IMG/VR virus record: IMGVR_UViG_3300034071_003115
Coordinates: 15,110 to 79,109 of that record
Strand: one strand, 5' to 3'
From: a virus
Length of the DNA stretch: 64,000 nt
Below the pieces are notes generated by a model. It did not search any database, was not told where the DNA came from, and saw nothing but the letters and a program-made list of their open reading frames with translations. Below, piece after piece: positions 28,761 to 46,125 of the stretch (the first letter of the stretch is position 1; the number at the start of each line of letters is the position of its first letter). The position numbers and the translations under genes were made by a program.

Positions 28761-29003
28761 GCATTTCCGGGGCTTCTGGAAGGCCCTCCGCAAGCGATTA
28801 TAGAACCGCCAACCCCTCGTCTGTAAAAAAATCCGCCGCGTCCCTAGTCGCACGGTGGGGGAGGGGGGTCGAGGACGCATTCTGGGGGTTGGGAGCATCC
28901 TCCGGATGCTACACGCCCCCAAAGAAAGCACGATCAAGACCATAGGCGATGATGGGGTCAGCGGTGGCGTTGCCGCCGCGGTGGTAGTTAGGAGGTACGC
29001 ACA

Positions 29004-29387
29004 ATGTACGCAATGCTCTTGCTTCTTTCGCCGATGGCGGCGGCGGCTCTTTCTTTCGTTCTCCGCGGTGATGCGGTGCTCTCGGTTCTCTTCGGTTTCG
29101 CGGCTCTCGGCGTTGTATCGTTCGCGGGTTTCGTTTACGAGTTCGGTGATCTCGCAATGGAGCACCGCTACGCGAAGAACCCACGCGAGGCAGACGGCGA
29201 GGTGGTCGCGTTCGGTCTGGTGTGCGCGGTGTCTGGAATCGCTGGCACGGCGATCTCGTGGCTCCTGGGTGCGGGCGATGCGATGTCGCTCCTTCTGGGT
29301 GTGGCGAGCGTGGGCGCGGCGTGGCTCGCAATCTTCGCGGTGGTCGTTGCCGATGAGAAGATGCGCCGCCGCTACGGCAAGCGATAG
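29004..29387 (+). CDS. Membrane protein (array A cargo)
   Basis: AGGAGG RBS, four hydrophobic segments, terminator hairpin after. Confidence 0.7.
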   Translation: MYAMLLLLSPMAAAALSFVLRGDAVLSVLFGFAALGVVSFAGFVYEFGDLAMEHRYAKNPREADGEVVAFGLVCAVSGIAGTAISWLLGAGDAMSLLLGVASVGAAWLAIFAVVVADEKMRRRYGKR

Positions 29388-29651
29388 CACACACACGAAA
29401 CGCAACCGCCCCCGTCCTCCGCGAGCGCGCGGAGGGCGGGGGCTTCTTTGTACCTATGTGACTTCGGTGGCGGTCGCGCCCCCTGGGGCTGCTGTTCTAT
29501 ATGTAACTCACAGTATGAATATAAATAACAAATAACATAATAAGTTCGATGGACTCGCCTCCGGCGAGTACAGACCGAGTATGAAAACGCTATTGTATGA
29601 GTGCGCGATGATGAGGGCGAGCCACCGAAGGCTCGGAAGGGAGACAATGGT

Positions 29652-29936
29652 ATGACTTGGCATCGACCTGATGAAGGCTGCGACGTCACCGTACGCGGTG
29701 ATGCTGATGACGTCATCACGATCACTTGCGTGAATACGGAAGGCGTGATGAGTCCGAAGCCGCACCGCTATCACGTCACGCTAAGCGCGAATGCGAACGC
29801 GCTGATGGTGATGGAAGCGGATGGCTACGGCGGCATCCACTACTTCAGTGACGCTGAAGCGAAGCGGGTGCTGATGGAAGACGAAGTCTGGTACGAACTA
29901 CCAGCATTCTTCCGCAATAGAATCGTCTGGCAATAG
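29652..29936 (+). CDS. Hypothetical protein (array A)
   Basis: AAGGGAG RBS, MTWHRP start. Confidence 0.65.
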   Translation: MTWHRPDEGCDVTVRGDADDVITITCVNTEGVMSPKPHRYHVTLSANANALMVMEADGYGGIHYFSDAEAKRVLMEDEVWYELPAFFRNRIVWQ

Positions 29937-29997
29937 CGTGATGGTGATGCGCGGCGAATGCGACGCCGCGCATCACTTCACTGAAGGGAGAATCACA

Positions 29998-30318
29998 ATG
30001 GTGAAGCACGTGAACCCGATCGAATGGAAGTTCGTGTATGAGCATCGCTCGACGCTGACGGAGCGCGAGAATCGCACTAGGATGGAAGCAGAATCCGATC
30101 GTGTATCGGATAGGATCGTGAAGGCTATCGAAGCGATTCGGAAGGATCGTCCATCGTCGTGGATCGACGAACTCGATACCCGCGCATTCTTCATTCTGAA
30201 GGACGCGCTCGATCCGATCGGATACGAAGTGTTGCGTCAGGATGAGGACGGCGCGTGGATCGTACGCGAACGATGGAATACTGGAACGGACTGGAACGCA
30301 CGACTGGTCATCGTCTGA
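29998..30318 (+). CDS. Hypothetical protein (array A)
   Basis: AAGGGAG RBS, MVKHVN start, GC hairpin after stop. Confidence 0.65.
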   Translation: MVKHVNPIEWKFVYEHRSTLTERENRTRMEAESDRVSDRIVKAIEAIRKDRPSSWIDELDTRAFFILKDALDPIGYEVLRQDEDGAWIVRERWNTGTDWNARLVIV

Positions 30319-30574
30319 TCGGCCTCCCCCCGTTCACCGCAGGCGCGGTGGGCGGGGGGAAGTTCTTTCGCAACCCCCCGGGTGCTGCTGTTCTATCTCT
30401 AACTGGCTGACTATAAGTAAATAACATAACAACATAAGTTCGACAGGCTCGCCTCCGGCGAGTACGACGCCGCTAAAAGAACGCGAATCAACATCTAGGA
30501 GATGATGGAGCAGCCGCGGACGCGCGGTGTGATGAATGCGACATCACAATGGTCTAGCAGAAAGGTGGCTTGGA

Positions 30575-30886
30575 ATGATCAAGACAATCGGCGAAGCGAT
30601 CGAAGCGCTTCGCAAGGTGGTAGCAGAAGCGCAAGACATCTTCGCGGAAACGGAGAATCTTGTCGCGAAAGCAGAAGCGATTCTTTCGCTCGCAACGATC
30701 ACGGGAAGCGCTGGTGATGCGATCAAGGCAAGCGAGAATGTTGGCGCTAGTAGAATGGCGTACCTTCGCGCTCGTCTCGAATTGGAGAAGCAGCGATTCT
30801 ACCTTTCGCAATTGGAGAAGGTAGCAGCCGAGAAGGGTAACGACTGGGAAGGCAACAAGGGAATCCAAATCCAGTCGATTCAGTAA
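30575..30886 (+). CDS. Coiled-coil hypothetical protein (array A)
   Basis: AAAGGTGG RBS, hairpin after stop. Confidence 0.65.
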   Translation: MIKTIGEAIEALRKVVAEAQDIFAETENLVAKAEAILSLATITGSAGDAIKASENVGASRMAYLRARLELEKQRFYLSQLEKVAAEKGNDWEGNKGIQIQSIQ

Positions 30887-31121
30887 GGACTTCCCCCTCA
30901 CCGCGGACGCGCGGTGAGGGGGATGGTTCTGTCGCGGCCCCCCGTGCTGCTGTTAGATGTGTAACCCACAAGAGATATATAAGTAACAATATATAAGTAA
31001 TAAGTTCGATAGACACGCCTCCGGCGCGTACTAGCTGAGAAGAAATACCGCGCCGTATCAATAGGGGATGATGTGCCTAGCCCCGATAGCAAGGGCGCTG
31101 CAGCAATAGGGGGATACGCAA

Positions 31122-31352
31122 ATGGGCAAGCGGATCAACCGCAAGCAAGCGATAGACCGCATCAAGGAGCGTCTACCGTTTGTTTCGCACACGGGAAATT
31201 TCCGCGGCGAATTGATCGGTACGCAATACATGGTGTATTCGTACCGCGTATGCATCGCGGATTTTACCAATGGCGCGTGGAGCATTGACCCCACGCGATG
31301 GAGCGCGACAACATCGCGCCATCAAGGCATCGTGCGCCGCGCGATCGCCTAA
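31122..31352 (+). CDS. Hypothetical protein (array A)
   Basis: AGGGGG RBS, SATTSRHQ motif. Confidence 0.65.
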   Translation: MGKRINRKQAIDRIKERLPFVSHTGNFRGELIGTQYMVYSYRVCIADFTNGAWSIDPTRWSATTSRHQGIVRRAIA

Positions 31353-31625
31353 CGGATCGGCCCGCGTATAAAGGCGGGCGAGGCAAGGGAGCAGGGGGAC
31401 GAGAGAGCCCCCTGCTCGCTCCTTTATTTTTTTCTCTTTTTTTATCCAGAGCCAAGGTGGCGGTCACACTCTCTTGTGGAATATAAGTAACTAAATATAA
31501 GTAATAAGTTCCACGGCCTCGCCTCCGGCGAGTACGACACCAGAAAAAGAATCTCTCCGTATGACTCGGCGATGATGGTGTCAGCGGCGCTGCTGTGGCG
31601 TCGCATCAGTACGGGAGGGAACGGT

Positions 31626-31967
31626 ATGGAATCGCTATTGGCACTGATCGCCACGCTAGGCGGCGTGACGGTACGCGCGCGCGGAATGCGCGCAGTGAAT
31701 CCTGCACGCGGGTACGCAGTAGGGTCGACTGATCGCACTGCGATCCTGCTGCCGCTCGACACCACGGAACGCGCACTACGCACTGCACTATTGGAATGCG
31801 CAGTGCAGTACGGTACGCGTCACGCAGGCGCGTGGGTCGAGGATGGGATGATTCACGTTGACCCCACCACGATCATCAGCAGCAGGCGCGCTGCGCTAGG
31901 CACTGCGAAGGCGAATCGTCAGCGTGCGATCTACGGATTCAAGGAACGCGAAACGATCTACGTCTAG
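31626..31967 (+). CDS. Hypothetical protein (array A)
   Basis: GGAGG RBS; GAW..DG..HVD...N.Q.AIY pattern. Confidence 0.65.
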   Translation: MESLLALIATLGGVTVRARGMRAVNPARGYAVGSTDRTAILLPLDTTERALRTALLECAVQYGTRHAGAWVEDGMIHVDPTTIISSRRAALGTAKANRQRAIYGFKERETIYV

Positions 31968-32224
31968 CAGGCATCCCCCCAGCCGCAAGGTCCCGCGGCT
32001 GGGGGGATTGCTCTATCGCGGCCCCCTCCATCCTGCTGTTAGATGTGTAATCTCCATGTGCAATATAAGTAACATAATTCATATCACGTTCGATGGGCCC
32101 GCCTCCGGCGGACACAGGTCGAGAAAAAGAATCTCGATGTACATCCGTGCGATGCTGGTGGTACCGCCGACGGGTGGGGCGAGCAATGCGAGCTCGCAAT
32201 TGGTTAGTGAACAGGAGGTTCAAC

Positions 32225-32497
32225 ATGCCAAAGGAGTTGAGGTCATTCATGATCCTCGTCTCAAAGGTCGTTGAGGGCGAGATCGCCGTCATCGCAGAGA
32301 CCGAGGAGAAGGCACGCGAGATCGCAATGGATCTTGCGTCGAATCACCCAGACACTTACCTCGACAACGATACGGATGTCGTTGTCGACTCAGTCCGCAG
32401 CGCCAGCGATCACGATCTCGAGTATCTGATCTTCAACGGCGCCAACGGATCTGAGTGGGACGCAAAGAGGCTGATCAAGATGTCCTTCGAGAAGTAG
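32225..32497 (+). CDS. Small acidic protein, DpnD/PcfM-like pattern (array A)
   Basis: AGGAGG RBS; V.AETEEKAREIA motif. Confidence 0.6.
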   Translation: MPKELRSFMILVSKVVEGEIAVIAETEEKAREIAMDLASNHPDTYLDNDTDVVVDSVRSASDHDLEYLIFNGANGSEWDAKRLIKMSFEK

Positions 32498-32774
32498 TAC
32501 CGAGAACCCCAGTCGGCAGCGGACGCGCTGCTGGCTGGGGTTTCTTTTTGCCCTGCACAAAGCTCTACCTCGGCCCCCTGGGGCCTGTAGTTCTATATCT
32601 AACACACAATATGAATATAAATAAGAGCAATAAGTTCCATGGCCACGCCTCCGGCGTGTACGACCTCGGCCTAAAAATCTCAATCAACAGAAACGCGATG
32701 ATGGGGTCAGCGGACGCGGTGCGGCATGAGCCGTTGCGACACCGAAGTGCGCGGTAGCAAAAAGGAGGACAGAG

Positions 32775-33176: not shown

Positions 33177-33254
33177 GAATCTCGTCGCAGTTCAATCAAA
33201 CGAGGTGCGAGCGAATGCGACGCTCGCACCTCACCATCAGTGAAGGAGAGAATC

Positions 33255-33563
33255 ATGTTCAAGTCAGACGGAAAGAAGATCAAACTCAACGCGTTCGGAA
33301 CGGATTACACGGCGGAGATTCTTGTTGATCAGTATCACAACGGCAACACTGCCGTTGTGTTGTACACAGAGCACGAGCCACTGTGCTCTCTCTCTGTGAA
33401 CACTGAGAAGATTCTTCCAACGGGTCACTTCTACTTGAAGGAGTGGTCAGAGAATCTTGAGATCGCTCACAATCAGAGCGTTCAGGAGATCATCAAGGAG
33501 TGTGGTCAGCATGAGGACTACGCTTCTGGATACGTCGTGGCACGCTGCTTCACGATCTCCTAA
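33255..33563 (+). CDS. DUF4313-like protein (array A)
   Basis: Y.NGN.A..L....EP...LSVN...KEWSEN pattern; AAGGAG RBS. Confidence 0.55.
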   Translation: MFKSDGKKIKLNAFGTDYTAEILVDQYHNGNTAVVLYTEHEPLCSLSVNTEKILPTGHFYLKEWSENLEIAHNQSVQEIIKECGQHEDYASGYVVARCFTIS

Positions 33564-33824
33564 AGTCTAGCCCCCCTTCCACCCAGCGCGGTGGGAGGGG
33601 GGTTAGTTATACCGCGGCACCCTGTGCTGCTGTTAGATCTCTAACCCCCTCACAATGTAAATAAATAAATAAGAGGAATAAGTTCCACGGGCGCGCCTCC
33701 GGCGCGTACGGCCCGAGAAAAAAAATCTCACGGAGTAGAAGCCTGATGATGGGTGCAGCGGCGGCACTACGGCGAAGGAGCCGATGTGATGGTGAAGCGT
33801 CGCAGGTAGCATTGGAGGTTCACG

Positions 33825-34184
33825 ATGAGTGCAATGAAGCGCATTGCAATCGCATTGGAGCGTGGTGCTCAACTCACCACGCACGATTGGAAGTTTGTTG
33901 AGAATCGCAGCAACTCGCTGCAAGCGCGTGTCGCATACGCGCAACTTCTCAACGAGTATGTTGTCGAGTTTGCGCGAACGCTCGACACCGCCGACCACGC
34001 GGTCGACGCAATCGAATCGCCGCACGATTACGCGGGAGAGATTGCCGCGTGGTTGTCGGAGAATCGCGACGAGCACGACGAGGAGATTGCTGCTCTCGGT
34101 CGATGGGAGTGCGCGGATTGCGACGCGGTTGCAACGCGTATGGACATCTACATCGACGAAGCAGAAACCTGCATCGTTGAGTGA
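33825..34184 (+). CDS. Acidic protein with W.CxxCDA motif (array A)
   Basis: TGGAGG RBS; resembles 32775-33176. Confidence 0.7.
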   Translation: MSAMKRIAIALERGAQLTTHDWKFVENRSNSLQARVAYAQLLNEYVVEFARTLDTADHAVDAIESPHDYAGEIAAWLSENRDEHDEEIAALGRWECADCDAVATRMDIYIDEAETCIVE

Positions 34185-34244
34185 AGCAAAGGAGTGTGGA
34201 AGCGCGCGGCGCTTCCACACTCCACAAGTTTGGAGGACAGCACA

Positions 34245-34565
34245 ATGAGCAAGAAAGCAAAGCAAACAAAGCGCACAGCAACGGAGTCGATCGGCGTGAT
34301 CAACAAGTTGCTTGCACGCAGCATTGAGCAGCGCGCGCTTGCTGCCGATGTTGTCGAGTTTGAGCGCGCAACACTCGTGGAACTTGCGATCGAGTCGAAG
34401 CCAAACAAGAAGTTGGTTGCGAAGTCGGAAGCGGCACTCGCAACGGCAACGGCAACGCTCGCATACTTCGAGGAGAACACGCGCACGCTGCAAGCGAAAC
34501 TTGCAAGCGCGATGAAGTCGGTTGCGAAAGCAACAGCGAAGCAGCGCGACGCTGCTAACGCGTAA
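34245..34565 (+). CDS. Ala/Lys-rich coiled-coil protein (array A)
   Basis: GGAGG RBS, MSKKAK start. Confidence 0.65.
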   Translation: MSKKAKQTKRTATESIGVINKLLARSIEQRALAADVVEFERATLVELAIESKPNKKLVAKSEAALATATATLAYFEENTRTLQAKLASAMKSVAKATAKQRDAANA

Positions 34566-34623
34566 TCACAGCGGGGTGCGGGCGCGCGGCGCTCGCACCT
34601 CGCAACAGCATTGGAGGTTCACG

Positions 34624-34845
34624 ATGTTTGACGATGACGGAAATCTTTCTTGTGAGTGGTGCCACGCAACAGAATCGGAAACAGAGATCAAAAAGGAGTG
34701 GGACGATCACGAGGGAAACAGCGTCACGATTTATGGAAGCAATCGAAACGCGCTTGCTCTTTGTCGTCAATGCTTCTACGAGTCGCAACTCGACGAAGCA
34801 ATCAGCGATCTCAAAGAGGTTTATCGCAAACTCGCGGAAGGTTGA
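34624..34845 (+). CDS. Small Zn-finger protein (array A)
   Basis: GGAGG RBS; two CxxC. Confidence 0.65.
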   Translation: MFDDDGNLSCEWCHATESETEIKKEWDDHEGNSVTIYGSNRNALALCRQCFYESQLDEAISDLKEVYRKLAEG

Positions 34846-34909
34846 TCAAACAAATGCGGGGTGCGGGCGCGCGGCGCTCGCACCTCGCGCAAGCATTTGG
34901 AGGTTCACG

Positions 34910-35290: not shown

Positions 35291-35511
35291 CGGAGTCCTC
35301 CCCCCGTTCACCGCAAGCGCGGTGGGCGGGGGGAGGCTCTAACGCAGCCCCCTGGGTGCTGCTGTTAGATGTCTAACACACAAGCGATAAGTAAATAACA
35401 TAAATAATATAAACGGGGAATAATATAAGTTCCAACATTACGGGCCGCGGCCCGTAATGCCCCCACAAATGTTATGCCCCCGCAAGTCCCAGACCTGCGG
35501 GGGCTAGTTAG

Positions 35512-35721
35512 TTAGCGGCGGTCCCAGAGGTACTGCGAGCCGTCCCAATCATCCTCGTACATCATCGCGTCCTTGTCGCCAAGCAGCGCAGCAGCCTCGG
35601 CGCGAAGTTCATCGCGGAACTCCTTACCGCAATAGTCGTGGTACCAGACTCCGCTGAACTCGTCCGTCCACTTGCCATCCTCGCTCGTGATTGTTTCGCT
35701 GCACCAATCGCACCTGAACAT
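35512..35721 (-). CDS. Small acidic Zn-binding protein (array B)
   Basis: AAGGAGG RBS; CxxC..HxxC. Confidence 0.7.
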   Translation of the reverse strand: MFRCDWCSETITSEDGKWTDEFSGVWYHDYCGKEFRDELRAEAAALLGDKDAMMYEDDWDGSQYLWDRR

Positions 35722-35900
35722 TTCTGCCTCCTTATTGCTACCACCCCAAGCGGGGTACCCCCATCATAGAGTCGCCATTTCCAATCCGTCAAGCCCCTAG
35801 TTTCGGGAGAGTCTCGTGCGCCGCGGCGCACGAGAGCCGAACAAAAGAAAACGCCAGCGGGGGTAGCATCCCGCTGGCGTGTTGCTAACGATTGTGCGCG

Positions 35901-36185: not shown

Positions 36186-36319
36186 TATTGCCTCCTTATT
36201 GCTACCCTCACGGCAACTGCCGCAAGGCAATACTACGCGAACTCCCGCTTGCTTGTCAAGCGTTCTATTCCACCCTGCCGCGGCAGGGTGGAGCCGACCC
36301 TAATACCTGCCGCTTTCGT

Positions 36320-36649: not shown

Positions 36650-36816
36650 TTTTGCCTCCTTGCTACCTAGCGGGAAGTCCCCGCCACTGAATACTAAGCG
36701 AACTCCTAGCCGCTCGTCAAGTGTTCTATTCCAACCTGCCGCGGCAGGTTGGAGCTCCACAAAGAAACAACGGCGGGGATTTCTCCCCGCCGTTGTCGTT
36801 CCCGATTTTGTGCGCG

Positions 36817-37224: not shown

Positions 37225-37336
37225 TTTCCGCCTCCTTGCTACTCATCGGGAAGCCCCGACACCAGAATCTTACGCGATAAGTTCCAGACCTGTCAAGGGT
37301 TCAAATCCAAGTCGCCGCGGCGACTTGGAGCCGAAC

Positions 37337-37578
37337 AAAATGATGAGGGTCTGACTGGCACCACACCAACCAGACCCTCATCGGCATTTCGCTGCCTTTG
37401 ACGCTTATCCTCTTGCGAGGAGAGGCTTCACCTCTCGGCTACCTCTTGCGAACGGCATAGGTGTCGGTTAGGCACCCCCACCGCTCGTCCTTATCGTCTC
37501 GGGTAGTTCGTCTACAACTACCAACCAGCCGCAGCCCCATAAGCCCGCCACCTTCACAGCGGCACCAGAGCGGCTCGT
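37337..37578 (-). ncRNA. Putative structured ncRNA 1 (~240 nt)
   Basis: Own TTGACG-N17-TAGAAT promoter and terminator, no SD-led ORF, several hairpins including one with a GCAA tetraloop. Confidence 0.6.
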
Positions 37579-37698
37579 GAGGTGATTCTAAACGAACATC
37601 TTCCAGCCGTCAAGAGTTCTAATCACACGGGCCGCGGCCCGTGTGAGGTGAACAAAAAAGGCGAGGTTTCCCTCGCCTTTCTTGACCAGACCCCCCGA

Positions 37699-37980: not shown

Positions 37981-38128
37981 TTCTGCCTCCTTGCTACTCT
38001 GCCCCAATCGGGGTACTCCGATTCTAAGCGAACACCTAGCCAGCCGTCAAGGGTTCTATTCCAAGTGGCCGCCGCCACTTGGAGCCGAACAAAAATGCCG
38101 CCCGAAGGCGGCATCTTTGCTTTCTGGA

Positions 38129-38467: not shown

Positions 38468-38577
38468 TTGAGCCTCCTCTGCTACCGCCCCAAGTGGGGT
38501 GAACCCATTGTAATCAAACTTCTCGCAAGGTGTCAAGAGGTTCTAGTGGAACAGGCCGCCGCCTGTTCCACCTGAAC

Positions 38578-38805
38578 AAAATACAAGACCCTCGGAGCCG
38601 TCGCCCCGAGGGTCTTGCTTCGGATTTGTTGTCTAGGGACTAATCACTTTCCCTAGACTCCTTTTCCTTCCGCTCCGCCGATCCATTGGCACCTAGCGGT
38701 CATCGTCCTTTGCGTCTCTATACCCGCATTTTTTGGCTGCGGCATCTGCTCGCTCGTCCAGAGTCTCACCTAGTCGGTGTCGCTTCATCTAGAATCGCTT
38801 CCGAC
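38578..38805 (-). ncRNA. Putative structured ncRNA 2 (~230 nt)
   Basis: Own TTGACA-N18-GAGAAT promoter and terminator; only a 31-codon ORF without clear SD; shares a motif with ncRNA 1. Confidence 0.5.
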
Positions 38806-38898
38806 AAGTGGATTCTCCCACACCCGAAACAGACCTGTCAAGCCCCTATTTCAGTTCCATTCCAATCACCCGCCGGTGATTGGAGCCGAACTATTTAT

Positions 38899-39240
38899 TT
38901 AGTTTGCTGGTGCTTCTGAGGAAGCGATTGCGTCGCTCAACGAGTAGAAGACAGGGTGTTCGTATCCGTTGCCTAGTTCTGATTTGTGAATCAACTCAAA
39001 CCACGAGTTATTTATCCACTCAAATCGCTCAATGTCTTTCTCCGCCTCTGCGAGTTTCTCGTCGGAGTCTATGCCGACATCTTCCAAGTCCCTCGTCGTG
39101 CGAAGATGGACAAACTGCCCATCATCTCGCTTGTACCTAATGTTCATCTCGCCACACCTGAACACCAGATAGTCGCCGAGGTCTTTGATCGCCTCGTCGT
39201 CTTCGTGATAGGTGTAGAAGGCTGCGTCTTCCCTGCTCAT
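38899..39240 (-). CDS. Acidic hypothetical protein (array B)
   Basis: Start overlaps upstream stop. Confidence 0.65.
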   Translation of the reverse strand: MSREDAAFYTYHEDDEAIKDLGDYLVFRCGEMNIRYKRDDGQFVHLRTTRDLEDVGIDSDEKLAEAEKDIERFEWINNSWFELIHKSELGNGYEHPVFYSLSDAIASSEAPAN

Positions 39241-39461
39241 ACACAACCCAGAACGGAGAATCCGTCTGCCGCGATTCCTTCCAGAATCGGTTCGGCATAG
39301 CGTGGCTCAACGACAAGAGCCTGACCCCAATAGGTCGCCTCCGAGTCCACCCTATCGCGCAGCCACGAGCGAGCCTCTGCTGTGAGTGGGGTGATGAGGG
39401 TAATCGTTCCCTCGCTTACGAACGAGAAGTCCGCGAAGTCGGACTTATCTCCCTTTCCCAT
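39237..39461 (-). CDS. Hypothetical protein (array B)
   Basis: GAGGAGG RBS. Confidence 0.7.
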   Translation of the reverse strand: MGKGDKSDFADFSFVSEGTITLITPLTAEARSWLRDRVDSEATYWGQALVVEPRYAEPILEGIAADGFSVLGCV

Positions 39462-39653
39462 TTCTTGCCTCCTCTTTCTGCGGCACTACTTCGCCGCAAG
39501 ACAAGGGTACAACAGCGACCACTAGGTCGTCAAGAGGTTCTAGTCAAACGGGCCGCGGCCCGTTTGAGGCGAACAAAAAAGAGGGATCAAGTTGGCTGCG
39601 ATCAACTTGATCCCTCTGTTGGGGCGTAGGGGAGGCTCTATCCTACGCCGTAG

Positions 39654-39920
39654 TCATAGTGCCGCGGCTTGTGGCTTGCGGCAGTCGTATCCTAGCAGGC
39701 AACTGAACGGCTCGTGATCAACGGGATCAATCGCCCACTCAAGGCAAGTCCCACAAGATTCACCGCACCAGTTTACTTCGTCCCAGTCAAAGACAGGGTG
39801 AAGATTATTGCCCTCGTTATCCTTCGTGTCTTCGCTGTCAAGCGTATCGCCGAAGCGTGCCTTCGCGCAGGCTAGGCAATGAACGGAAGCGTCAAACTGC
39901 CAAGCGATCGGTGTTGACAT
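39654..39920 (-). CDS. Cys-rich acidic protein (array B)
   Basis: AAGGAGG RBS; two CxxC. Confidence 0.7.
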   Translation of the reverse strand: MSTPIAWQFDASVHCLACAKARFGDTLDSEDTKDNEGNNLHPVFDWDEVNWCGESCGTCLEWAIDPVDHEPFSCLLGYDCRKPQAAAL

Positions 39921-40041
39921 ACATTCCTCCTTATTCGCAGCGTCGGTACTTCCGACAATCGGATTGTCCCATACCTCGGGCTGTCCGTCAAATGTTCCAG
40001 CCCAAGCACCCGCGGGTGCTTGGGGGCGAACTATTTATTGC

Positions 40042-40275
40042 TCAATACACGCCAGTCCCGCCGCAGCCGCACGCTCCGTCTTGGCACATCACGCCCTCGT
40101 CAAGCAACATTGCGCAGCCGTACTTATCTGATCGGTGCTCCTCGCACTTCACGCAGTATCGGGAGGGCAGCCCAGAGGAGTTGTTGTCCGCCCAATACGC
40201 AAACGGCTCCTCACAGAAATCACAGGATACTACTCCCTGCGGTTCGCCGACTGGAATCTCAAAGTGGTCGCTCAT
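40042..40275 (-). CDS. Cys-rich small protein (array B)
   Basis: Coupled to upstream gene. Confidence 0.6.
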   Translation of the reverse strand: MSDHFEIPVGEPQGVVSCDFCEEPFAYWADNNSSGLPSRYCVKCEEHRSDKYGCAMLLDEGVMCQDGACGCGGTGVY

Positions 40276-40517
40276 TACAGCGCACCATAGCAGTCATCGC
40301 AGAGATTACGAACTTCATCATAGGCGTATTCTGCGCCGTTCCAGCCATAGGAGAACTTTCGCCCCTTGCCCTCAAATGGGCAACGCTTATCAAGTCGCAG
40401 CACTTCCTCGCCCTCGCACTCCTGAACGAGCGGGTGGTCGTGCGTTTCACACTCGCATTGGTCGTAGTAGCAATCTCCGTTGCCACACATCGTCATTGAG
40501 CCTTGTAGGTACGCCAT
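40275..40517 (-). CDS. Cys-rich acidic small protein (array B)
   Basis: AAGGAGG RBS. Confidence 0.65.
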   Translation of the reverse strand: MAYLQGSMTMCGNGDCYYDQCECETHDHPLVQECEGEEVLRLDKRCPFEGKGRKFSYGWNGAEYAYDEVRNLCDDCYGAL

Positions 40518-40636
40518 TGTTGCCTCCTTGCTCGCAGCACCCCAAGCGGGGTAGCCCTATTGTAAATCCACTTGCTTCTATCCGTCAAGAGGTTCTATCC
40601 CAGATGGCCGCGGCCATCTGGGGGAGAACTATTTAT

Positions 40637-40837
40637 TTACTTCCAGTCGCTTGGGATTTCACGCCAAGTCAATCCCCCGTTATCGCAGTCTGCCGAGTAG
40701 ATGTCGCACTCTTGACACCACACCACATAGCAGTCCTCTAAATGCTTGTCGCAGTCAGACCAAAGCCAATGCTCTTCCCGCCTATCCATCGGGCAGTCGC
40801 AGGGCTTTCGTTTAGATGTGGGGAATAGGCGGCTCAC
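40637..40837 (-). CDS. Cys-rich small protein (array B)
   Basis: GTG start overlapping upstream stop. Confidence 0.55.
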   Translation of the reverse strand: MSRLFPTSKRKPCDCPMDRREEHWLWSDCDKHLEDCYVVWCQECDIYSADCDNGGLTWREIPSDWK

Positions 40838-41283
40838 AATACCTCACACCCTTTCAGGTCAGCGCACTTCTCCAAGAACGCCTGCCACTCTCGGATAAGA
40901 CCAACCCACGAAGTCGCCTCCTCGCTTGGGAACGCCTTCGTGTGGTCGTCCATAAACGGATTGTTTGCGATTATGGCAATCATTTCGTTTTTGATTTGCT
41001 CATCGCTCATAGACGCGATTTTCTCGGAGAGTGCGCGGCACTCATAGTCCTTGATGACCTCGCCGCTATTATCAAGTAGATTCTCGTTCACCTCGTCAAA
41101 GCCAATCGCATCGTGGAACTCACGCAACATCGGCATACCCCAGATGTTCAGACGGAAGTAGAGCGTATCGGGAGCCTTCTCGTCATACGAGCCGTCCTCG
41201 TTTACCCACATTGAGCGGTGCTTCTTTGCGTGTTCAGCCGCAGCCTTTCGGTCTGGTAGCAGCGAGTAGATGTCGTATCCCAT
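40834..41283 (-). CDS. Hypothetical protein (array B)
   Basis: AAGGAGG RBS; MGYD...YFRLNIWG.P motif. Confidence 0.7.
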   Translation of the reverse strand: MGYDIYSLLPDRKAAAEHAKKHRSMWVNEDGSYDEKAPDTLYFRLNIWGMPMLREFHDAIGFDEVNENLLDNSGEVIKDYECRALSEKIASMSDEQIKNEMIAIIANNPFMDDHTKAFPSEEATSWVGLIREWQAFLEKCADLKGCEVL

Positions 41284-41434
41284 TTCCAGCCTCCTTTATT
41301 ACAAACCCCAAGCGGGGCAACACCATTGTAAGCAGATTTGCCGTCAGCCGTCAAGGGGTTCTAACCCAAATGGCCGCGGCCATTTGGGGCTGAACAAAAA
41401 ACAAGCCCCCCGAAGGGGGCTTGTTTTTCTTGGG

Positions 41435-41512
41435 CTACTTTCTTACTTCGCTAACGATTGCGTATGTAAACGAAGCGAGCAGAAGAAGAAAGCCCCAAAA
41501 CAACTCAATCAT
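41435..41512 (-). CDS. 25-aa hydrophobic peptide
   Basis: MIELFWGFLLLLASFTYAIVSEVRK*, ATGA-coupled to DUF932 stop, terminator follows. Confidence 0.45.
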   Translation of the reverse strand: MIELFWGFLLLLASFTYAIVSEVRK

Positions 41513-42474
41513 CGGGAAAGCGCGAGGACTGCCTCGCGCTTTGTCTTCGCTGCGAAACCTGTGTCTAGCATTACGCTAGAAGCACGAGCGTCCGAAGCAG
41601 AAGAGCGTACCCCGCCGCGATACGAAACGCCATAGTCCAGATACTCGGCGATGGCGTTGTATACGCCCCACTTCGTATCGCGCAAACCTTCTAGATTCTC
41701 CGCGTTATTGAGAATCGCGATTGTTGCCTTCGCTCGCTCCGACATTACTTCCTTCCCACGCTTCTCCGACTCCGACAGCGGGAAGATTCTCGTGATGACG
41801 CGGAATGCCTCATCGCGATCCATCTTCTCCGCGATCATACGCGAGCCGATGACCGAAAACTCCTCAACCGCGCTTGCGGCAAGTCCGAGTGCGCGCTTCG
41901 CCTCTGCGACTTTCTCCTCAATCTTCGCGGTGTGGCGAAGTGTGAACGACATCTTCGCGCTGCCCAACGCTGCGTTGAGCGTGTTCATACAAACAACGCG
42001 GATTGGCGTAATCATCGCTTTGAGTGGGAACAAGCCGTTGTGCCCATTGGCAATCACAAGGTAGGTGTTGGTATCACCATTGTCGCCCTTGATCTTGATC
42101 CTCTCTGGAATCTCCAACGCGGAGAAGACGATCTGCCCACCTTTGAGTGAACCCGCCGACTCGTAGCGTGCGCCCTCGTCAAGCAACGCGTCCGCGAACG
42201 ACATCATCTCGTCGTTCTGGATTGGCGTGTAGCGATCACCGACAACGCCCAAGACCGAGCCATCGGTGCTGCGAACATTTGCGCGCTTGCCGTTGATCGC
42301 GATTTGCTTGCCGTCAAGCGTCGTGAAGATCGGCTGCTGCTTTACTGCCCAATCAAGACCAGCCGCAACGATCATCTCCGCGCTCGTTGTGAGTCCATTA
42401 TTGGCAACGCCGAGTTTGTGCCACGGCGCGCCCCTTTCCGCGTTGTATGCCATCGTTTCTACTTCGTGTGCCAT
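41509..42474 (-). CDS. DUF932 family protein
   Basis: MAHEVE...PWH.LG...AGLDW.V, LGVVG.RY.PIQN, TPIRVVCMNTL, T.WG.YNA. Confidence 0.85.
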   Translation of the reverse strand: MAHEVETMAYNAERGAPWHKLGVANNGLTTSAEMIVAAGLDWAVKQQPIFTTLDGKQIAINGKRANVRSTDGSVLGVVGDRYTPIQNDEMMSFADALLDEGARYESAGSLKGGQIVFSALEIPERIKIKGDNGDTNTYLVIANGHNGLFPLKAMITPIRVVCMNTLNAALGSAKMSFTLRHTAKIEEKVAEAKRALGLAASAVEEFSVIGSRMIAEKMDRDEAFRVITRIFPLSESEKRGKEVMSERAKATIAILNNAENLEGLRDTKWGVYNAIAEYLDYGVSYRGGVRSSASDARASSVMLDTGFAAKTKREAVLALSR

Positions 42475-42592
42475 TTGCGTCCTCCTTTTTTCTCAACGGC
42501 AACTGCCGCTAGATGGATTGTCGCATACTTCCCGAGATTGCGTCAAGTTCTAGTCCAAAGGGCCGCGGCCCTTTGGAGCCGAACTATTATCT

Positions 42593-42877
42593 TTATGCGT
42601 GTCGGTGCGCTTCTACAAAGTCGCAGTTCGGGATAAAGCACCAGCCTTCATCTCGCGCTTCCGCGTCCGACATAAATGGCGGGTGAAACTCACACTCGCA
42701 GGGAGCGCAGTCCAAGCAGTAAACCAGATAACCCTCTGGCACACCGCTCTCATACTGATCAAAGTCAAGAACATCAAAGCGCGTGTTTGGCTCGCCGTTC
42801 CACGCACCGATGACTTTCTCATCGGGGTAAACAAGCGGAGCCGAGCAGCGAGTACACGCGTGAAGTTCACCGCTCAT
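42593..42877 (-). CDS. Cys-rich protein (array B)
   Basis: GGAGGAG RBS before MSGELHAC. Confidence 0.6.
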   Translation of the reverse strand: MSGELHACTRCSAPLVYPDEKVIGAWNGEPNTRFDVLDFDQYESGVPEGYLVYCLDCAPCECEFHPPFMSDAEARDEGWCFIPNCDFVEAHRHA

Positions 42878-43043
42878 CGGTAATCTCCTCCGCGCTCCAA
42901 ACAATAATCTCTGGCGTAGTGTCCCAAGGTGCTGGCTCCTCTGCCAACTCAAACGCCTTGCCCTCTGCCTCGCCCTGATCCAAGGCTTCCACCTCAAACT
43001 CGCGATAGCCAGTGTGTTGTAGAACAACGATCCACTTACTCAT
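42867..43043 (-). CDS. Small acidic DpnD/PcfM-like protein (array B)
   Basis: EVEALDQGEAEGKA motif; GGAGG RBS. Confidence 0.55.
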   Translation of the reverse strand: MSKWIVVLQHTGYREFEVEALDQGEAEGKAFELAEEPAPWDTTPEIIVWSAEEITDER

Positions 43044-43353
43044 TGTCGCCCTCCCACTCTGCGCCCTGCTCAATCAAGGAGAAGAATCCATCGTTCGGAT
43101 TCTTGTCTGGGTGTACGCTCGCAACCGCCTGAACGAATCGCAGCGAGCAAGAGTTCTCGTACCACTCCATAATCGTACTCAACATTTCGTTAGGGTTGGA
43201 ATCTTTTGCCTCAATGAGCGTCGTGTAGCCATACTCCTTCATCTGCTCCACCTGCGCGTCGTCAAGCAGAACATAGATTTTGTGGCAATCGTCAAAGCCG
43301 ATACCCTTTGCGATTTCCACCATCTCCTCAACCTTGTCCCAACTTACTGCCAT
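43036..43353 (-). CDS. Acidic hypothetical protein (array B)
   Basis: GAGGAGG RBS; FDDCHKIY...SCSLRF. Confidence 0.7.
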   Translation of the reverse strand: MAVSWDKVEEMVEIAKGIGFDDCHKIYVLLDDAQVEQMKEYGYTTLIEAKDSNPNEMLSTIMEWYENSCSLRFVQAVASVHPDKNPNDGFFSLIEQGAEWEGDNE

Positions 43354-43515
43354 TTCAGCCTCCTCACTACAACGGCAAGTGCCGTCTAGTGGATTGTCGC
43401 ATACCCAAAGCCCAGCCGTCAAGCGTTCTACCCCAAGGAGCCGCCGCTCCTTGGGCAAGAACAAAAACAAACGAGCCGCCCGAAGGCGGCCCGCTTGATT
43501 ACTTGATCTCGAAGA

Positions 43516-44061
43516 TCAGACTGGCTGATTCTCTGGCAGCGCAGCCTCTTCCTTCGTAATCTTTCCCGCTCGGATTGCGTCGCGCAGTTCGATGCTCTCT
43601 TTGTGTGTGATCGCATCGAGATCAGGGTTGTGCTTCTCTGCGTATTTCAGTTCTTTCAGACCCTCATGCTCCATGCGCTCCATAACGCGCTTGCGCCAAG
43701 CACCAGCGGTTTCGTATGAGGCGTTGGTTTCCAGTCCGATGTGCTGCTCCAAGTCTGCTCTGGTAATCATGCGCGGTTCCCACTTGATGTTTCCGTCGTC
43801 TTCATACCCAGAAAACACAACACTCTTGTCGATCCATGCGACCGAGTAAGCGAGCGCCATGCGCTTCTCCCACTCGTCAAGATTCTCTGGCGTGATCTCG
43901 TTGAGCCCAATGCTCATCGTGTGCCAGATAATCGAGTTGGTGATCGGATGAAGGTACTCCTCACCGCGAGTCGTGCCGTCATGGGCGCTGCTCCTTGTTG
44001 CCGTTCGGTAGCAAACATCGTCCGCGTTCTTTACATTTTTTACTGACCAGTTGAGCGGCAT
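43516..44061 (-). CDS. Hypothetical protein (array B)
   Basis: AAGGAGG RBS. Confidence 0.7.
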   Translation of the reverse strand: MPLNWSVKNVKNADDVCYRTATRSSAHDGTTRGEEYLHPITNSIIWHTMSIGLNEITPENLDEWEKRMALAYSVAWIDKSVVFSGYEDDGNIKWEPRMITRADLEQHIGLETNASYETAGAWRKRVMERMEHEGLKELKYAEKHNPDLDAITHKESIELRDAIRAGKITKEEAALPENQPV

Positions 44062-44070
44062 ACAGCCTCC

Positions 44071-44298
44071 TTACTTCTTCTTGGTGGCGCGCTTTGCGCC
44101 AGACTCACGAATCGCACGCTCCAATCGCTCGGTGCGCTTATCAGCGTGATGGCTGCTGATGACGAAGAACGCCCAGATCGTTGCTGGCAGCCAGCCGATC
44201 AGCGTGAGTTGGAGAACAAGCGCGATGATTGCCTGAACCCATTTGCCAGCAGCCAGAAACCCAAACGCTGGAAAGAGCAACGCCAATAGGTACTTCAT
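44071..44298 (-). CDS. YqaE/Pmp3-like small membrane protein
   Basis: Y.LA..FP.......GK..QA.I.L.LQ.T.IGW.PA..WA. Confidence 0.75.
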   Translation of the reverse strand: MKYLLALLFPAFGFLAAGKWVQAIIALVLQLTLIGWLPATIWAFFVISSHHADKRTERLERAIRESGAKRATKKK

Positions 44299-44492
44299 TT
44301 TCTACCTCCTTACTTTCTATCGGGAATCCCCGACCACTTGATTTTCTCACGGGTCATAGCGACCTGTCAAATGGTCTACCCCAGACACCGGCGGGTGTCT
44401 GGGCGCGAACAATAATAAATAAGCCCCGCCATTTCTGGCGAGGCTTATTCACACTCGGGCTAACGCTGTGATTTCATCAGCCCTGTATCTAA

Positions 44493-45305
44493 TCAGCCCC
44501 CGACAACGCCGCCGAAGTGTTTATCACAGAACTTCTCAAACTCGTTCATTGGTACGGCATCATAATCACGCTCGCCGTACTCAATCTCGTCGTCCTCGCC
44601 CTTGTGCCACGCTTCGTCTGGCAAATCATCTGCGTTGTAATCACTTACGCTTACAACCTCTCCGTTCTCGTACACAATCTCACCTGCGAAACCCATACCG
44701 CCTTCGCAGTATCGGTGAGCGATTGCGAGCGTTGGAAACTGCTTGGCGAGCGCGGCAATCACAGGCTCCGCAGGAGCCCAAGCCGTATCAAAGTTGTACG
44801 AAACGATTCCGTCAATCTTGCTATCGTCATCGCCGCGGTCGCTCCATACTTCACCGCAGTTCCACTTGGAGCCCCAGTTAGAAACATTCCAGTTGTACCA
44901 CCAGTCTGGGTGCGATGAGTTCTGCTTGACCTTGTGAATCGGACAGATTGGCGTACCGCCAAACATCAGGGCGGTATCATCTTGGATTGTGCCGTTGCTT
45001 GATTCTTCCTTCACAACTGGAATACCATCAACGCACCACTCGCCCTGCTTTCGCATTACATCTTTGCCGTCGTTATCGGTGTACGAAACGATTTCTGGTA
45101 GGTCATCTCGCTCAACCCACACCTGCTTACAGCCGCATTGGAAATCGTTCTGACCCTCGTTGATTGCGTAGAACTTGCTATCGGGTGGCGGCACAATCTT
45201 CGCAAAGTCGAAGTCGCCCTCGCTGCCCTTCACAAACTCAACCAACCTTGCGACCTCTGCTTCGTCGCCGCTAATGTCTACTTGGTTCACACACCAGTTA
45301 GGCAT
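44493..45305 (-). CDS. DUF1281 / YubB ferredoxin-like protein
   Basis: MPNWC.N, WY.W...NWGSKWN, FDTAWAP, Y.EGG..FAG. Confidence 0.75.
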   Translation of the reverse strand: MPNWCVNQVDISGDEAEVARLVEFVKGSEGDFDFAKIVPPPDSKFYAINEGQNDFQCGCKQVWVERDDLPEIVSYTDNDGKDVMRKQGEWCVDGIPVVKEESSNGTIQDDTALMFGGTPICPIHKVKQNSSHPDWWYNWNVSNWGSKWNCGEVWSDRGDDDSKIDGIVSYNFDTAWAPAEPVIAALAKQFPTLAIAHRYCEGGMGFAGEIVYENGEVVSVSDYNADDLPDEAWHKGEDDEIEYGERDYDAVPMNEFEKFCDKHFGGVVGG

Positions 45306-45447
45306 CTTTCTTTCCTCCTTGTATCACAGACAGGGAAGCCCCTGCCCCTAGATTGTAAGGCAACTTCTAGCCATCGGTCAAGTTGCCAGCCAGAGTTCTA
45401 TCTCAACTGGCGGCGGCCAGTTGAGGGCGAACTAAAATTTTGCGTTT

Positions 45448-45780
45448 TTAGCGATCGAAGGACATTGCGCTAACTCCATCAGGGGTCATAACAACATGTC
45501 CACCCTCTACGAAGATTCGACCACCGTCGTTCGCTTCATCATCAGATGAAATAACAAGGGAATAACGCTTGCCGCCCTGCTCTACGAATAACACTGGCAT
45601 GTAAGGGTCAGCACCGCCATCGCCTAACACCGTGCCCCCAATAATCGTTGCGCCAATAAGCGGCTCAACCATTTCTGTCCGAAGGTAGTGCCGCTCAATC
45701 TGGTCGCGGCTCAAGCCGAGTCGCTCCTTGACCAACTGGTCTCTGCTGCTCAATAACTGAGCAATCGTTTCCACTGCCAT
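45448..45780 (-). CDS. Hypothetical protein (first gene of array B)
   Basis: AAGGAGG RBS; promoter TTGACA-N18-TACAAT at 45820-45849. Confidence 0.7.
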   Translation of the reverse strand: MAVETIAQLLSSRDQLVKERLGLSRDQIERHYLRTEMVEPLIGATIIGGTVLGDGGADPYMPVLFVEQGGKRYSLVISSDDEANDGGRIFVEGGHVVMTPDGVSAMSFDR

Positions 45781-45963
45781 AACTTCCTCCTTATGCCTAC
45801 GGCTAACTGCCGTAGGGGGATTGTAAGCGATCGCTATAACTTGTGTCAAGCCCTCGGGTTCGACCCTCGCTTCTGCGGAAGCTCGGCTACCCCAAAAAAA
45901 ACATCTTGTCAAGTCCTCCCCCAAAACGACCCCCGAATAATAACTGAACTTCGGTAGGCCAAC

Positions 45964-46113: not shown

Positions 46114-46125
46114 GGAGGTATGACC

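Follow-up and report, generated by a model that had tools for sequence, protein, structure and literature searches.

Perfectly Paired Palindromes Upstream of Phage Promoters: Candidate DNA-Level Elements in Two Converging Arrays of Gene Cassettes

Introduction

Why should nearly every small gene unit in one part of a phage genome be headed by a short palindrome set at a nearly constant distance from its promoter, and is that palindrome kept as a structure of DNA or of RNA? These questions are raised by a locus at 28.9–45.9 kb of a 64,000-nt stretch (hereinafter the window) comprising bases 15110-79109 of a single viral contig of 79,109 bp (IMG/VR record IMGVR_UViG_3300034071_003115, designated G000) that belongs to a tailed phage. 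To our knowledge, the virion RNA polymerase (vRNAP) of phage N4 is essentially the only system in which a routine promoter signal is established to consist of DNA secondary structure. In the arrays described below, the pairing pattern points to palindromes that are maintained at the level of DNA. Positions are window coordinates unless a genome is named.

For comparison, six related IMG/VR contigs were recovered by DNA patterns derived from the hairpin elements themselves. Identity to G000 amounts to 95–98% for G001 and G005 and to about 65–85% for G002/G003, G004, G006 and G007; the complete relatives are G004 (84.6 kb) and G006 (85.2 kb), and contig starts are arbitrary. A generic pattern of the frame of the class B elements (see below) retrieved paired stems from IMG/VR in contigs of this clade only, the other matches being due to chance.

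Architecture of the Two Arrays

The plus-strand array (28.9–35.3 kb) consists of eight units headed by class A elements and converges with the minus-strand array (35.5–45.9 kb), which consists of 17 class B promoter units. Together, they make up about 25 autonomous transcription units, each with one to four small genes, apart from two class B units without an open reading frame (ORF) led by a Shine–Dalgarno (SD) sequence. A perfect palindrome heads 16 of the 17 class B promoter units; the seventeenth palindrome is a promoter-less orphan at the convergence point. The overall picture given by the initial annotation, i.e., two converging arrays of about 25 self-contained cassettes, nearly all of them hairpin-headed, is thus borne out.

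At a unit boundary, the intrinsic terminator of the upstream unit is followed by a short T- or AT-rich tract with GTTC, the palindrome, the promoter, a small 5′ leader hairpin and the SD sequence. Terminators lie directly upstream of most class A modules and of about 11 of the 17 class B copies, the palindrome then starting 3 nt past the U-tract of a canonical terminator, in line with the earlier remark that many copies stand between a terminator and the next promoter. The six class B copies without a separate terminator begin about 10–25 nt after a stop codon.

The class B element is a 24-bp palindrome with a perfect 10-bp stem (11 bp in one copy) and a 4-nt loop, present 17 times on the minus strand between 35,429 and 45,432. 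In 16 cases it is followed by NTAGAAC, a spacer of 0–3 nt (13 copies) or 12–13 nt (three copies) and a promoter of the form TTGAC(A/G)-N17/18-TAnnAT; a 4-bp leader hairpin, e.g., CCCC-GCTT-GGGG, the SD sequence and the gene come next. The palindrome typically stops about 9 nt short of the promoter (range 7–20 nt). The loop centre is 43.5–46.5 bp from the −10 hexamer in 13 copies, close to the 44.5–46.5 bp initially given for most of them, and 55.5–56.5 bp from it in three. A GTTC starts 17 nt before the loop in 14 of the 17 class B copies and 16 nt before it in seven of the eight class A copies, again as first described, and the entire class B frame, GTTC-N3-[24]-N3-GAAC, is length-invariant in 73 copies. 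The leader hairpin and the SD sequence stand at equal offsets from the −10-like box in both classes.

The G000 genome has 25 hairpins with a perfect stem of 9 bp or more and a 4-nt loop, 21 of which are located in 35.3–46.0 kb, against a mean of 0.17 in shuffles; in the complete genome of G004, 25 of 27 such hairpins lie inside the arrays. Promoter-like sites are also in excess (23 observed vs. 9.4 expected).

Covariation Points to Structure at the DNA Level

In an ungapped alignment of 73 distinct class B copies from six genomes, the stem is 100% paired, and nine of its ten positions are changed on both sides. Doubly changed cells number 222, compared with 52 ± 10 in shuffles, and slid controls pair at 31–48%. 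The aligned copies had been picked for pairing, and the count was repeated on promoter anchors alone, which are free of selection for a perfect stem. Among 81 distinct TTGAC-N-TAnnAT array sites, 72 were accompanied by a stem with ten of ten Watson–Crick pairs, one by a stem with a G-T pair and one by a stem with a mismatch; the others were the degenerate first promoter of the minus array, one AT-rich variant palindrome and a few chance sites within genes. In sum, the 74 promoter-anchored stems of six related phages contain 738 Watson–Crick pairs, one G-T pair and one mismatch.

Class A elements behave similarly. In 40 distinct copies, the C-TCC-G centre is invariant and never inverted, and the adjoining 5-bp stem covaries at four to five positions, with no G-T pair. 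Hence, covariation, proposed at the outset as a check on the hairpins, is strong in both classes, and the claim that stem sequences vary while complementarity is kept extends from the window to five related phages. The outer GTTC and GAAC of class B do not covary, and GAAC is retained where GTTC is lost; an outer 4-bp GTTC/GAAC helix enclosing a 3 × 3 bubble was rejected for this reason, the two being conserved motifs rather than a stem.

The kind of pairing is informative in its own right, since a G-T pair on one strand is an A-C mismatch on the other; hence, exclusive Watson–Crick pairing fits either selection on both strands or copying from arm to arm. The RNA structures of the same arrays are more permissive: G-U accounts for 15 of 80 predicted pairs (19%) in a conserved noncoding RNA (ncRNA) of the class B array and for about 12% of pairs in folds of the terminator-bearing sequence immediately before the palindromes. 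The loops differ as well. Terminator loops in the arrays are UUCG or GAAA, unlike those of class B, which are CGCG, GGCG, CGCC, TGCG or CGCA, with GGCG and CGCC about equally frequent. An escape of the loop variants from a restriction enzyme recognising CCGCGG was also considered and dismissed, as CCGCGG is not avoided in the genome.

Further evidence comes from the closest pair of genomes. G000 and G001 are about 96% identical, and their 17 orthologous class B pairs include three exact loop inversions, CGCC to GGCG or the reverse (at 44403, 38884 and 38083), three more loops differing at one outer base and one stem changed on both arms (at 37329). At this divergence, not a single case of two independent complementary substitutions within the same 4-nt loop would be expected; inversion of the spacer between inverted arms, which would account for the flips, is an event at the DNA level. 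Moreover, most class B copies are situated just past a terminator, so few transcripts should contain them. As judged from these sequence patterns, the evidence points to palindromes maintained as DNA and not RNA structures.

The main competitor of this conclusion is a role at the RNA level, in which read-through transcripts would carry the hairpins as second terminators, as 3′-end protectors against exonucleases or as RNase III-type processing sites. It could be likened to the T7 early region or to the PeSL/PmSL elements, the composite promoter-stem-loop cassettes of T4-type phages (Arbiol et al. 2010, PMC2839356; Comeau et al. 2014, PMC4122927), whose stem-loops are terminators or terminator-like, e.g., A3-4G3-loop-C3T3-4 (PMC4122927). 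The palindromes are indeed found at the 3′ end of every unit, their stems are very stable, and the six copies close behind a stop codon are those without another terminator. In addition, all seven class B loops of G007 are TCCG, on the sense strand a UNCG-type RNA tetraloop (UCCG), and this leaves room for such a role, although the same loop also embeds CGGAG on the template strand. We nonetheless consider an RNA-level role unlikely. Only one G-U would be present in 740 pairs, compared with 12–19% in the RNA structures of the arrays; in five of the six genomes, the loops do not belong to the stable RNA tetraloops and occur freely in either orientation; about 11 of the 17 copies directly follow a canonical terminator; and the class A loop is special only on the template DNA strand. 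The palindromes are not intrinsic terminators either. Neither class of stem has a T run behind it, whichever strand is considered, the T-tract preceding the stem instead, and a terminator scan lists the upstream hairpins and not the palindromes. A scan against Rfam produced no match at gathering score, its weak matches being terminator-like hairpins.

Class A Modules, Host-Type Promoters and the N4 Precedent

Class A elements have a 5–6-bp stem around the invariant centre, with the core CCTCCGG on the plus strand at 28899, 29558, 30452, 31018, 31522, 32102, 32648 and 33696; elsewhere in the 79-kb genome, this heptamer occurs only twice, in unrelated contexts. The module includes, in order, an AT-rich block with TATAAGTAA-like repeats, ATAAGTTC, six bases, two 6-bp stem arms separated by TCC, TAC, an A-tract, GCGATGATGG, a leader hairpin, GGAGG and the start codon. 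The GATGAT/GATGCT box starts 46 nt past the loop centre in all eight window copies, exactly as reported initially. The geometry said to be shared by the two classes is found in the subclade of the window (46 vs. 45.5), where class A combines GATGAT at +46 with an A-tract near −40 and no −35. It does not hold in G004, G006 and G007, where the class A box (TATTCT, GATTAT or CATTAT) is at +42 and a −35-like cTGAcT stands 17 bp upstream, giving a sigma-70 layout. A sigma-70 promoter within the AT-rich block upstream of class A was considered and rejected, the spacing of its TTAGAT/TTCTAT to a TATAAG-like motif being inconstant (13–20 nt).

Searches for a phage RNA polymerase (PF00940, N4 mini-vRNAP and N4 gp16) found no match in G000, G004 or G006, although very distant polymerases can escape sequence searches; Sigma70_r2 was likewise unmatched in these three genomes, and the largest ORFs are structural (a tape-measure-like gene and the tail fibre). 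Overall, the phage appears to rely on the host RNA polymerase. The boxes can be read as putative −10 elements of host-polymerase promoters, strong in class B and weak in class A. The class B modules, with their consensus sigma-70 promoters, are probably immediate-early, while the class A modules are probably factor-dependent, because their −10-like box is accompanied by no −35 (window clade) or by a weak one (G004 clade).

The vRNAP promoters of N4 need a template-strand loop with a 5′ G, a 3′ A, a purine centre and a 3′G:C5′ closing pair for extrusion at physiological supercoiling (PMC4496689). The class A template strand reads C-GGA-G in 40 of 40 copies and is therefore of the required type. 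The likeness goes further: N4 hairpins have a 5–7-bp stem and a 3-nt loop (5–6 bp and TCC in class A), the stem sequence is free if pairing is kept, and the five central bases, C-TCC-G, are those of the N4 promoter P2, in the region of which GAAGC-TCC-GCTTC was read directly from the N4 sequence at 559–571.

Taken literally, this would make class A elements true hairpin promoters of the N4 kind, served by a hairpin-specific polymerase or a hairpin-binding recruiter and starting about 11 nt past the loop centre at TAC-R, so that the A-tract, the GATGAT box and the leader hairpin would form a conserved 5′ untranslated region. This agrees with the conserved TAC plus purine found at the predicted +1 in seven of the eight window copies, with the invariant, never inverted centre and with the lack of a −35 in the window clade. 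The differences make it quite improbable. The template base at −8 is C in all window-clade copies and not the G contacted by vRNAP; homologues of vRNAP and RNAPII were undetectable in the three genomes searched, two of them complete, whose only giant ORFs are the tape-measure-like and tail fibre ones. The hairpin precedes a −10-like box by 42–46 nt, not a known start by 11 nt, and 8–10 copies are spread through the array, compared with three at the N4 genome end. The sigma-70 layout of the G004 clade (TATTCT being its box) and the leader hairpin and SD sequence, placed at the class B offset from the box, also speak against it. Thus, class A resembles the N4 hairpin and departs from it in the polymerase and in the −8 G.

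Late promoters of phages P2 and P4, activated by the zinc-finger proteins Ogr/Delta, offer another parallel: they lack a −35 and possess a dyad-symmetry element near −55, and their activators are small and Cys-rich. An element near −55 and a −35-less promoter are found here as well, and several small CxxC-rich proteins are encoded in the arrays. The P2 dyad, TGT-N12-ACA, is read as a duplex, its outer bases being conserved and its interior free, whereas the present elements have a conserved centre and a covarying outer stem, which argues for structure.

Upstream of the class A modules, a 14-bp inverted repeat, GTTM-N6-KAAC, is situated on the plus strand at 29494-29507, 30390-30403, 30952-30965, 32590-32603, 33632-33645 and 35364-35377, with a near-match at 32038-32051. 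The motif has seven matches in the window against 2.5 expected, six of them at class A-type modules. Usually it lies within TGCTGCTGTTAGATNTNTAAC, about 100 nt upstream of the class A box, and it looks operator-like; relatives harbour GTTCGAnnTCGAAC-like versions at this position. The repeat invites the idea that the flanks are the functional part: a dimeric protein would read GTTC-N6-GAAC, present as duplex upstream of class A and assembled at class B only when the 24-bp palindrome loops out, i.e., a supercoil-dependent operator. The length-invariant frame of the 73 class B copies would indeed collapse to GTTC-N6-GAAC upon looping out, G007 has GTTCGATACCGAAC at the position of the class A upstream inverted repeat, and motifs that do not covary, with GAAC kept where GTTC is not, are expected of protein-read sites. 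Even so, the case is one of pattern; the 5′ GTTC is missing in about 15% of copies, looping out the class A hairpin does not bring its flanks into GTTC-N6-GAAC, and no DNA-binding domain was found by Pfam among the array cargo and neighbouring genes, so we regard such an operator as improbable.

Cassettes Are Shuffled on the Whole Repeated Module

The order of cassettes among relatives, another check proposed with the initial annotation, differs across the six genomes compared. In tblastx clustering, shared leaders and terminators link all the cassettes, and protein clustering was used instead. The gene before the one encoding DUF932, for instance, belongs to family 15 in G000, 28 in G004, 29 in G006, 2 in G002 and 12 in G007, while families 6 and 7 are adjacent in G000 and G006 and lie apart, in inverted order, in G004 and G002.

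At close range, G000 and G001 differ by five structural changes in 18 kb, each flanked by 11–95 nt of repeated module or leader sequence. These are a whole class A cassette on the plus strand (32028-32561, missing entirely from G001), single genes at 34632-34855 and 44077-44304, a 307-bp insert of G001 at 33196-33257 and a replacement of cargo at 37344-37607. The spacers of the class A multi-gene operons (33196-33257, 34184-34218, 34564-34598 and 34849-34883) are themselves repeated units of hairpin plus SD sequence, e.g., GGGGTGCGGGCGCGCGGCGCTCGCACCTC...GGAGGTTCACGATG, recombination between which is associated with single genes gained or lost between G000 and G001.

The palindrome core can accompany either neighbour: TCCAAT/C-C/G-TGC always follows family 6, and YCCAAAGGGC precedes the DUF932 gene in five genomes, which indicates crossovers on both sides of the palindrome. 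Accordingly, the crossovers map to the whole repeated module, on its terminator or promoter side, and not to the hairpin specifically. Contigs from lake metagenomes join element to element (e.g., 37332 to 37650 and 38567 to 43465); such joints are compatible with cassette polymorphism and may reflect co-occurring relatives or assembly artefacts.

Could the palindromes then be dedicated recombination or mobility sites, akin to integron attC, REP/RAYT or IS200/IS605 sequences, at which a structure-specific enzyme excises and inserts cassettes? With attC and REP/BIME they share a conserved structure with variable sequence at cassette or gene boundaries and short motifs beside the variable stem. 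One element per cassette boundary plus an orphan at the array end (n + 1 boundaries), a GTTC whose spacing to a variable hairpin is constant, as it is at the ends of REP and IS200/IS605 elements, the shuffled order and the element-to-element contigs would all suit this role, which we nevertheless judge very improbable. Neither a tyrosine recombinase of the IntI type (PF00589) nor a Y1 HUH transposase (PF01797) was matched in three phage genomes in searches whose positive controls were, although a host enzyme is possible in the latter case. The extrahelical bases by which attC is defined are missing from the stems, which are perfect, and the outer GTTC...GAAC runs opposite to the attC order R″(RYYYAAC)...R′(GTTRRRY). 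The elements, unlike attC sites and REP/BIME elements, are tied to a promoter at fixed spacing; the indels between close genomes end in the flanking repeats and not at a fixed hairpin position, the cores travel with either gene, and the contig joints can be artefactual.

Ordinary homologous recombination, as proposed for PeSLs, is enough for the shuffling, which, as far as sequence comparison goes, would be a PeSL-like recombination on repeated regulatory modules and not a site-specific exchange. Therefore, the suggestion of cassette shuffling at a hairpin recombination site stands as regards the shuffling (a variable order and five module-bounded indels) and falls as regards the site, since crossovers involve the whole module and no recombinase was found in the genomes searched. 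The resemblance to PeSL arrays covers stem-loop and early sigma-70 promoter modules that are repeated many times (16 in class B) and flank small ORFan genes, the indels and replacements bounded by modules in close relatives, and a second class of module with a promoter deviating from the sigma-70 consensus (middle-type). In contrast to PeSLs, a separate terminator usually precedes the palindrome, which has no T-run and is followed by NTAGAAC; the 10-bp stem is perfect and length-invariant, with a covarying core, a flipping loop and a fixed distance to the −35; and the phage is not T4-like but has a genome of 79–85 kb, an HK97-type portal, an SU10-like capsid protein and a giant tape-measure-like gene. 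The arrays thus work like PeSL arrays without two of the PeSL features, the terminator stem-loop and the T4-like phage, whereas membership among attC sites, REP elements or terminators does not fit. The PeSL idea, i.e., repeated regulatory modules as joints for the exchange of accessory genes, is thereby extended to an unrelated phage lineage.

A Possible Role in Transcription

Our preferred reading, held tentatively and with slightly less than even confidence, is that the region represents the early and delayed-early part of a tailed phage, in which the palindromes are extruded and act as a structure-read upstream element or insulator. Negative supercoiling, generated by gyrase or behind polymerases leaving the adjacent promoter, would extrude the palindromes as hairpins or cruciforms, with the aid of the AT-rich flank and, in class A, of the N4-type template-strand C-GGA-G triloop. 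The extruded structure, about 55–59 bp upstream of the presumed start and on a fixed helical face, would serve as an upstream promoter element or an insulator, and its reader could be a structure-specific factor (a host architectural protein, single-stranded DNA-binding protein or small phage protein) or topology alone. We infer where transcription starts, that the palindromes extrude in vivo, that something reads them and in which direction they affect expression. Apart from any hairpin function, the repeated modules of ~100–250 bp would provide homology for adding, deleting, replacing and reordering cassettes.

The proposal made in the initial annotation, selection on a DNA hairpin or cruciform at about −58, is sustained as to pairing at the DNA level (738 Watson–Crick pairs against one G-T, loop flips, a GNA-type triloop in class A); the equal −58 geometry is not kept across the clade. 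A number of points weigh against the extrusion model. Being near-consensus, the class B promoters should work without activation. Cruciform extrusion nucleates poorly at GC-rich palindrome centres and, for 24-bp palindromes, is generally rare in vivo. The distance from the class A loop to the box is 46 in one subclade and 42 in the other, so the exact geometry is not universal; the promoter-less orphan conserved where the arrays converge is easier to reconcile with a boundary or insulator than with an activator; the perfect arms could partly stem from self-correction by template switching instead of selection; and the TCCG loops of G007 have been discussed above.

A helical rule for the spacing is suggestive and not established. 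Among 58 class B copies, the distance from the centre to the −35 is 19.5 (5 copies), 21.5 (30), 22.5 (15), 31.5 (4) or 32.5 (4), with none in between, as if one helical turn had been added. The long-spacer copies trace back to only four independent loci, three of which have a similar AAAnnGGGGC insert.

A more general proposition is that, throughout this freshwater clade, extruded DNA hairpins or cruciforms serve the host RNA polymerase as upstream promoter elements. Every early promoter would then have a perfect self-correcting palindrome, and every delayed-early one an N4-type GGA-triloop hairpin, read by a small structure-specific factor and not by a virion polymerase. We give this a real chance, though one well below even. 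If true, the N4 principle would have been put to use a second time, independently and in combination with host transcription. In seven related phage genomes, about 100 independent copies bear the marks of selection on DNA pairing, at a fixed place upstream of promoters that look ordinary, and these phages have no recognisable polymerase of their own. If the hairpins are functional, they constitute a natural, highly replicated test bed for supercoil-driven extrusion in gene control, since compensatory variants have already been supplied by nature.

Individual Elements of the Arrays

Class A unit 1 (28895..28953, as all class A units on the plus strand) comprises GCATCC-TCC-GGATGC with the loop centre at 28902, an A-rich tract and GATGAT at 28948; it has neither the GTTC nor the AT-rich upstream block, and its G002 ortholog shows a compensated stem, GCACCC/GGGTGC. 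Unit 2 (29544..29612) has GTTC, a loop centre at 29561 and a GATGAT box at 29607, and unit 3 (30438..30506) has GTTC, the hairpin CTCGCC-TCC-GGCGAG centred at 30455 and a box at 30501. In unit 4 (31004..31072; centre 31021, box 31067), the fifth pair is an A-C mismatch. The hairpin part of unit 5 (31508..31576; centre 31525, box 31571) is overwritten in G001 by a copy of that of the neighbouring unit 4, i.e., by conversion between elements. Unit 6 (32088..32156; centre 32105, GATGCT box 32151) belongs to the cassette missing from G001, unit 7 occupies 32634..32702 (centre 32651, box 32697), and unit 8 (33682..33750; centre 33699, box 33745) heads a four-gene operon extending to 35290.

The orphan at the convergence point (35429..35466) is a hybrid: a class A upstream block (the 14-bp inverted repeat, the AT-rich tract and ATAAGTTC) precedes, on the plus strand, a class B-type palindrome, CATTACGGGC-CGCG-GCCCGTAATG, with no promoter on either side. 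G001 and G002 have the same core, and G004 and G006 each contain an analogous orphan.

The class B units, all on the minus strand, follow. The unit at 35763..35842 has a long (+10) spacer, its palindrome frame at 35805-35842 and TTGACG-18-TATGAT. Next come 36230..36299 (TCCACCCTGC-CGCG; TTGACA-18-TAGTAT), 36691..36760 (TCCAACCTGC-CGCG; TTGACG-18-TAGTAT) and 37267..37336 (TCCAAGTCGC-CGCG; TTGACA-18-TAAGAT), the last reading TCCAAGTTGC in G001, with both arms changed. The unit at 37585..37653 heads a noncoding cargo (see below). Loop flips distinguish 38021..38090 (TCCAAGTGGC-GGCG; TTGACG-18-TAGAAT; CGCC in G001) and 38812..38891 (long, +10, spacer; GGCG; CGCC in G001); between them lies 38507..38577, with the 11-bp stem GTGGAACAGGC-GGCG and TTGACA-18-TACAAT. 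CGCG loops recur at 39504..39574 (TCAAACGGGC; TTGACG-18-TACCCT), 39963..40031 (CCCAAGCACC; TTGACG-17-GACAAT), 40559..40629 (CCCAGATGGC; TTGACG-18-TACAAT), 41325..41395 (CCCAAATGGC; TTGACG-18-TACAAT) and 42517..42584 (TCCAAAGGGC), where GAAC directly abuts TTGACG and the gene headed is that of DUF932. The remaining palindromes are those at 43393..43462 (CCCAAGGAGC-GGCG; TTGACG-18-GACAAT), 44341..44410 (CCCAGACACC-CGCC, flipped to GGCG in G001; TTGACA-18-GAAAAT) and 45352..45432 (long, +11, spacer; CTCAACTGGC-CGCC; TTGACC-18-TACAAT).

The first promoter of the minus array (45820..45885, minus strand; TTGACA-18-TACAAT) is preceded only by a degenerate 5-bp hairpin, GCTTC-CGCA-GAAGC, and TCGAAC, unlike in G006, where a full palindrome stands before the homologous second cassette (family 12). 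The surrounding segment, 45850-46050, is a divergent control region, in which minus-strand promoters (45849 and 45912) face a plus-strand promoter, TTGACC-N18-CATACT (45964), leading a rightward operon of small ORFan genes to about 48 kb.

AT-rich tracts before the GTTC (38896-38906, 40032-40045 and 40630-40642: TAAATAAATAG; TAACTAACTAAC in relatives; also in class A modules of G004, G006 and G007) contain stops in all three frames, so that any ORF brought in upstream by recombination would end at the boundary of the cassette.

Cargo Genes and Genomic Context

The cargo of the arrays includes genes for DUF932, DUF3846, DUF7249 and an Api92-like protein, many ORFans and two conserved noncoding RNAs. 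An earlier Pfam scan of G000 genes had returned DUF932 and DUF1281_C; a scan of 40 further genes in and around the arrays added Pmp3, DUF3846, DUF7249 and a weak WYL_2, with PDDEXK_1, an IstB/DnaC-like ATPase and MazG in the flanks. Seven early proteins are conserved in all six genomes, and Cys-rich proteins of 80 and 88 aa, candidate readers of the hairpins, are encoded at 40275-40517 and 39654-39920. Judged by where their domains occur elsewhere, the cargo genes are similar to the sets of early anti-defence genes found in phages and in the leading regions of plasmids. The arrays can thus be viewed as a catalogue of candidate host-takeover genes.

The first noncoding cargo, of about 235 nt (37340-37585, minus strand), is located behind a class B promoter and ends in a strong terminator. 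It is about 93–95% identical in G004, G002 and G006, where the surrounding DNA is 70–80% identical, and is swapped for unrelated sequence in G001; it has no match in Rfam and is predicted to fold into multiple hairpins with many G-U pairs. The class B unit at 38620-38812 (minus strand), devoid of an SD-led ORF, runs for about 190 nt to a terminator and may represent another early ncRNA; in G001, G002 and G006, the homologous promoter is followed by the same initial 25 nt (CCACTTGTCGGAAGCGATTCTAGA).

G000 is abundant in lake-water metagenomes (at least 85% of sampled words present in 20 runs) and has no nucleotide match among 50,697 deposited phages (INPHARED); no RNA run is listed among the public runs holding its sequence. 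Its structural genes encode a portal of the HK97 type (PF04860), an SU10-like capsid protein with only remote matches on similarity search, a prohead protease and the terminase large subunit, along with a tail fibre of 1667 aa with an S74 chaperone; a PD-(D/E)XK nuclease, a DnaC/IstB-like ATPase, MazG and an SbcD-like exonuclease are encoded as well. A giant ORF of 2794 aa (10333-18717 of the G000 genome, plus strand, reaching up to 3608 in the window) is Ala/Gly-rich, coiled-coil and hydrophobic and resembles tape measure proteins, although sequence searches against PDB found no match for it; its counterpart in G004 (45879-56303, minus strand) is 3474 aa long. Both are among the longest such genes and, if truly tape measure, would imply a very long tail. 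A placement of the class B array at the physical left end, derived from G004 (flagged for a direct terminal repeat), was withdrawn, as the array is mid-contig in the equally flagged G006. Across the whole G000 genome, the hexamers GGATCC, GCCGGC and GCTAGC are absent (about 7–10 expected) and CCTAGG occurs once, and these missing palindromic hexamers suggest restriction pressure from the host.

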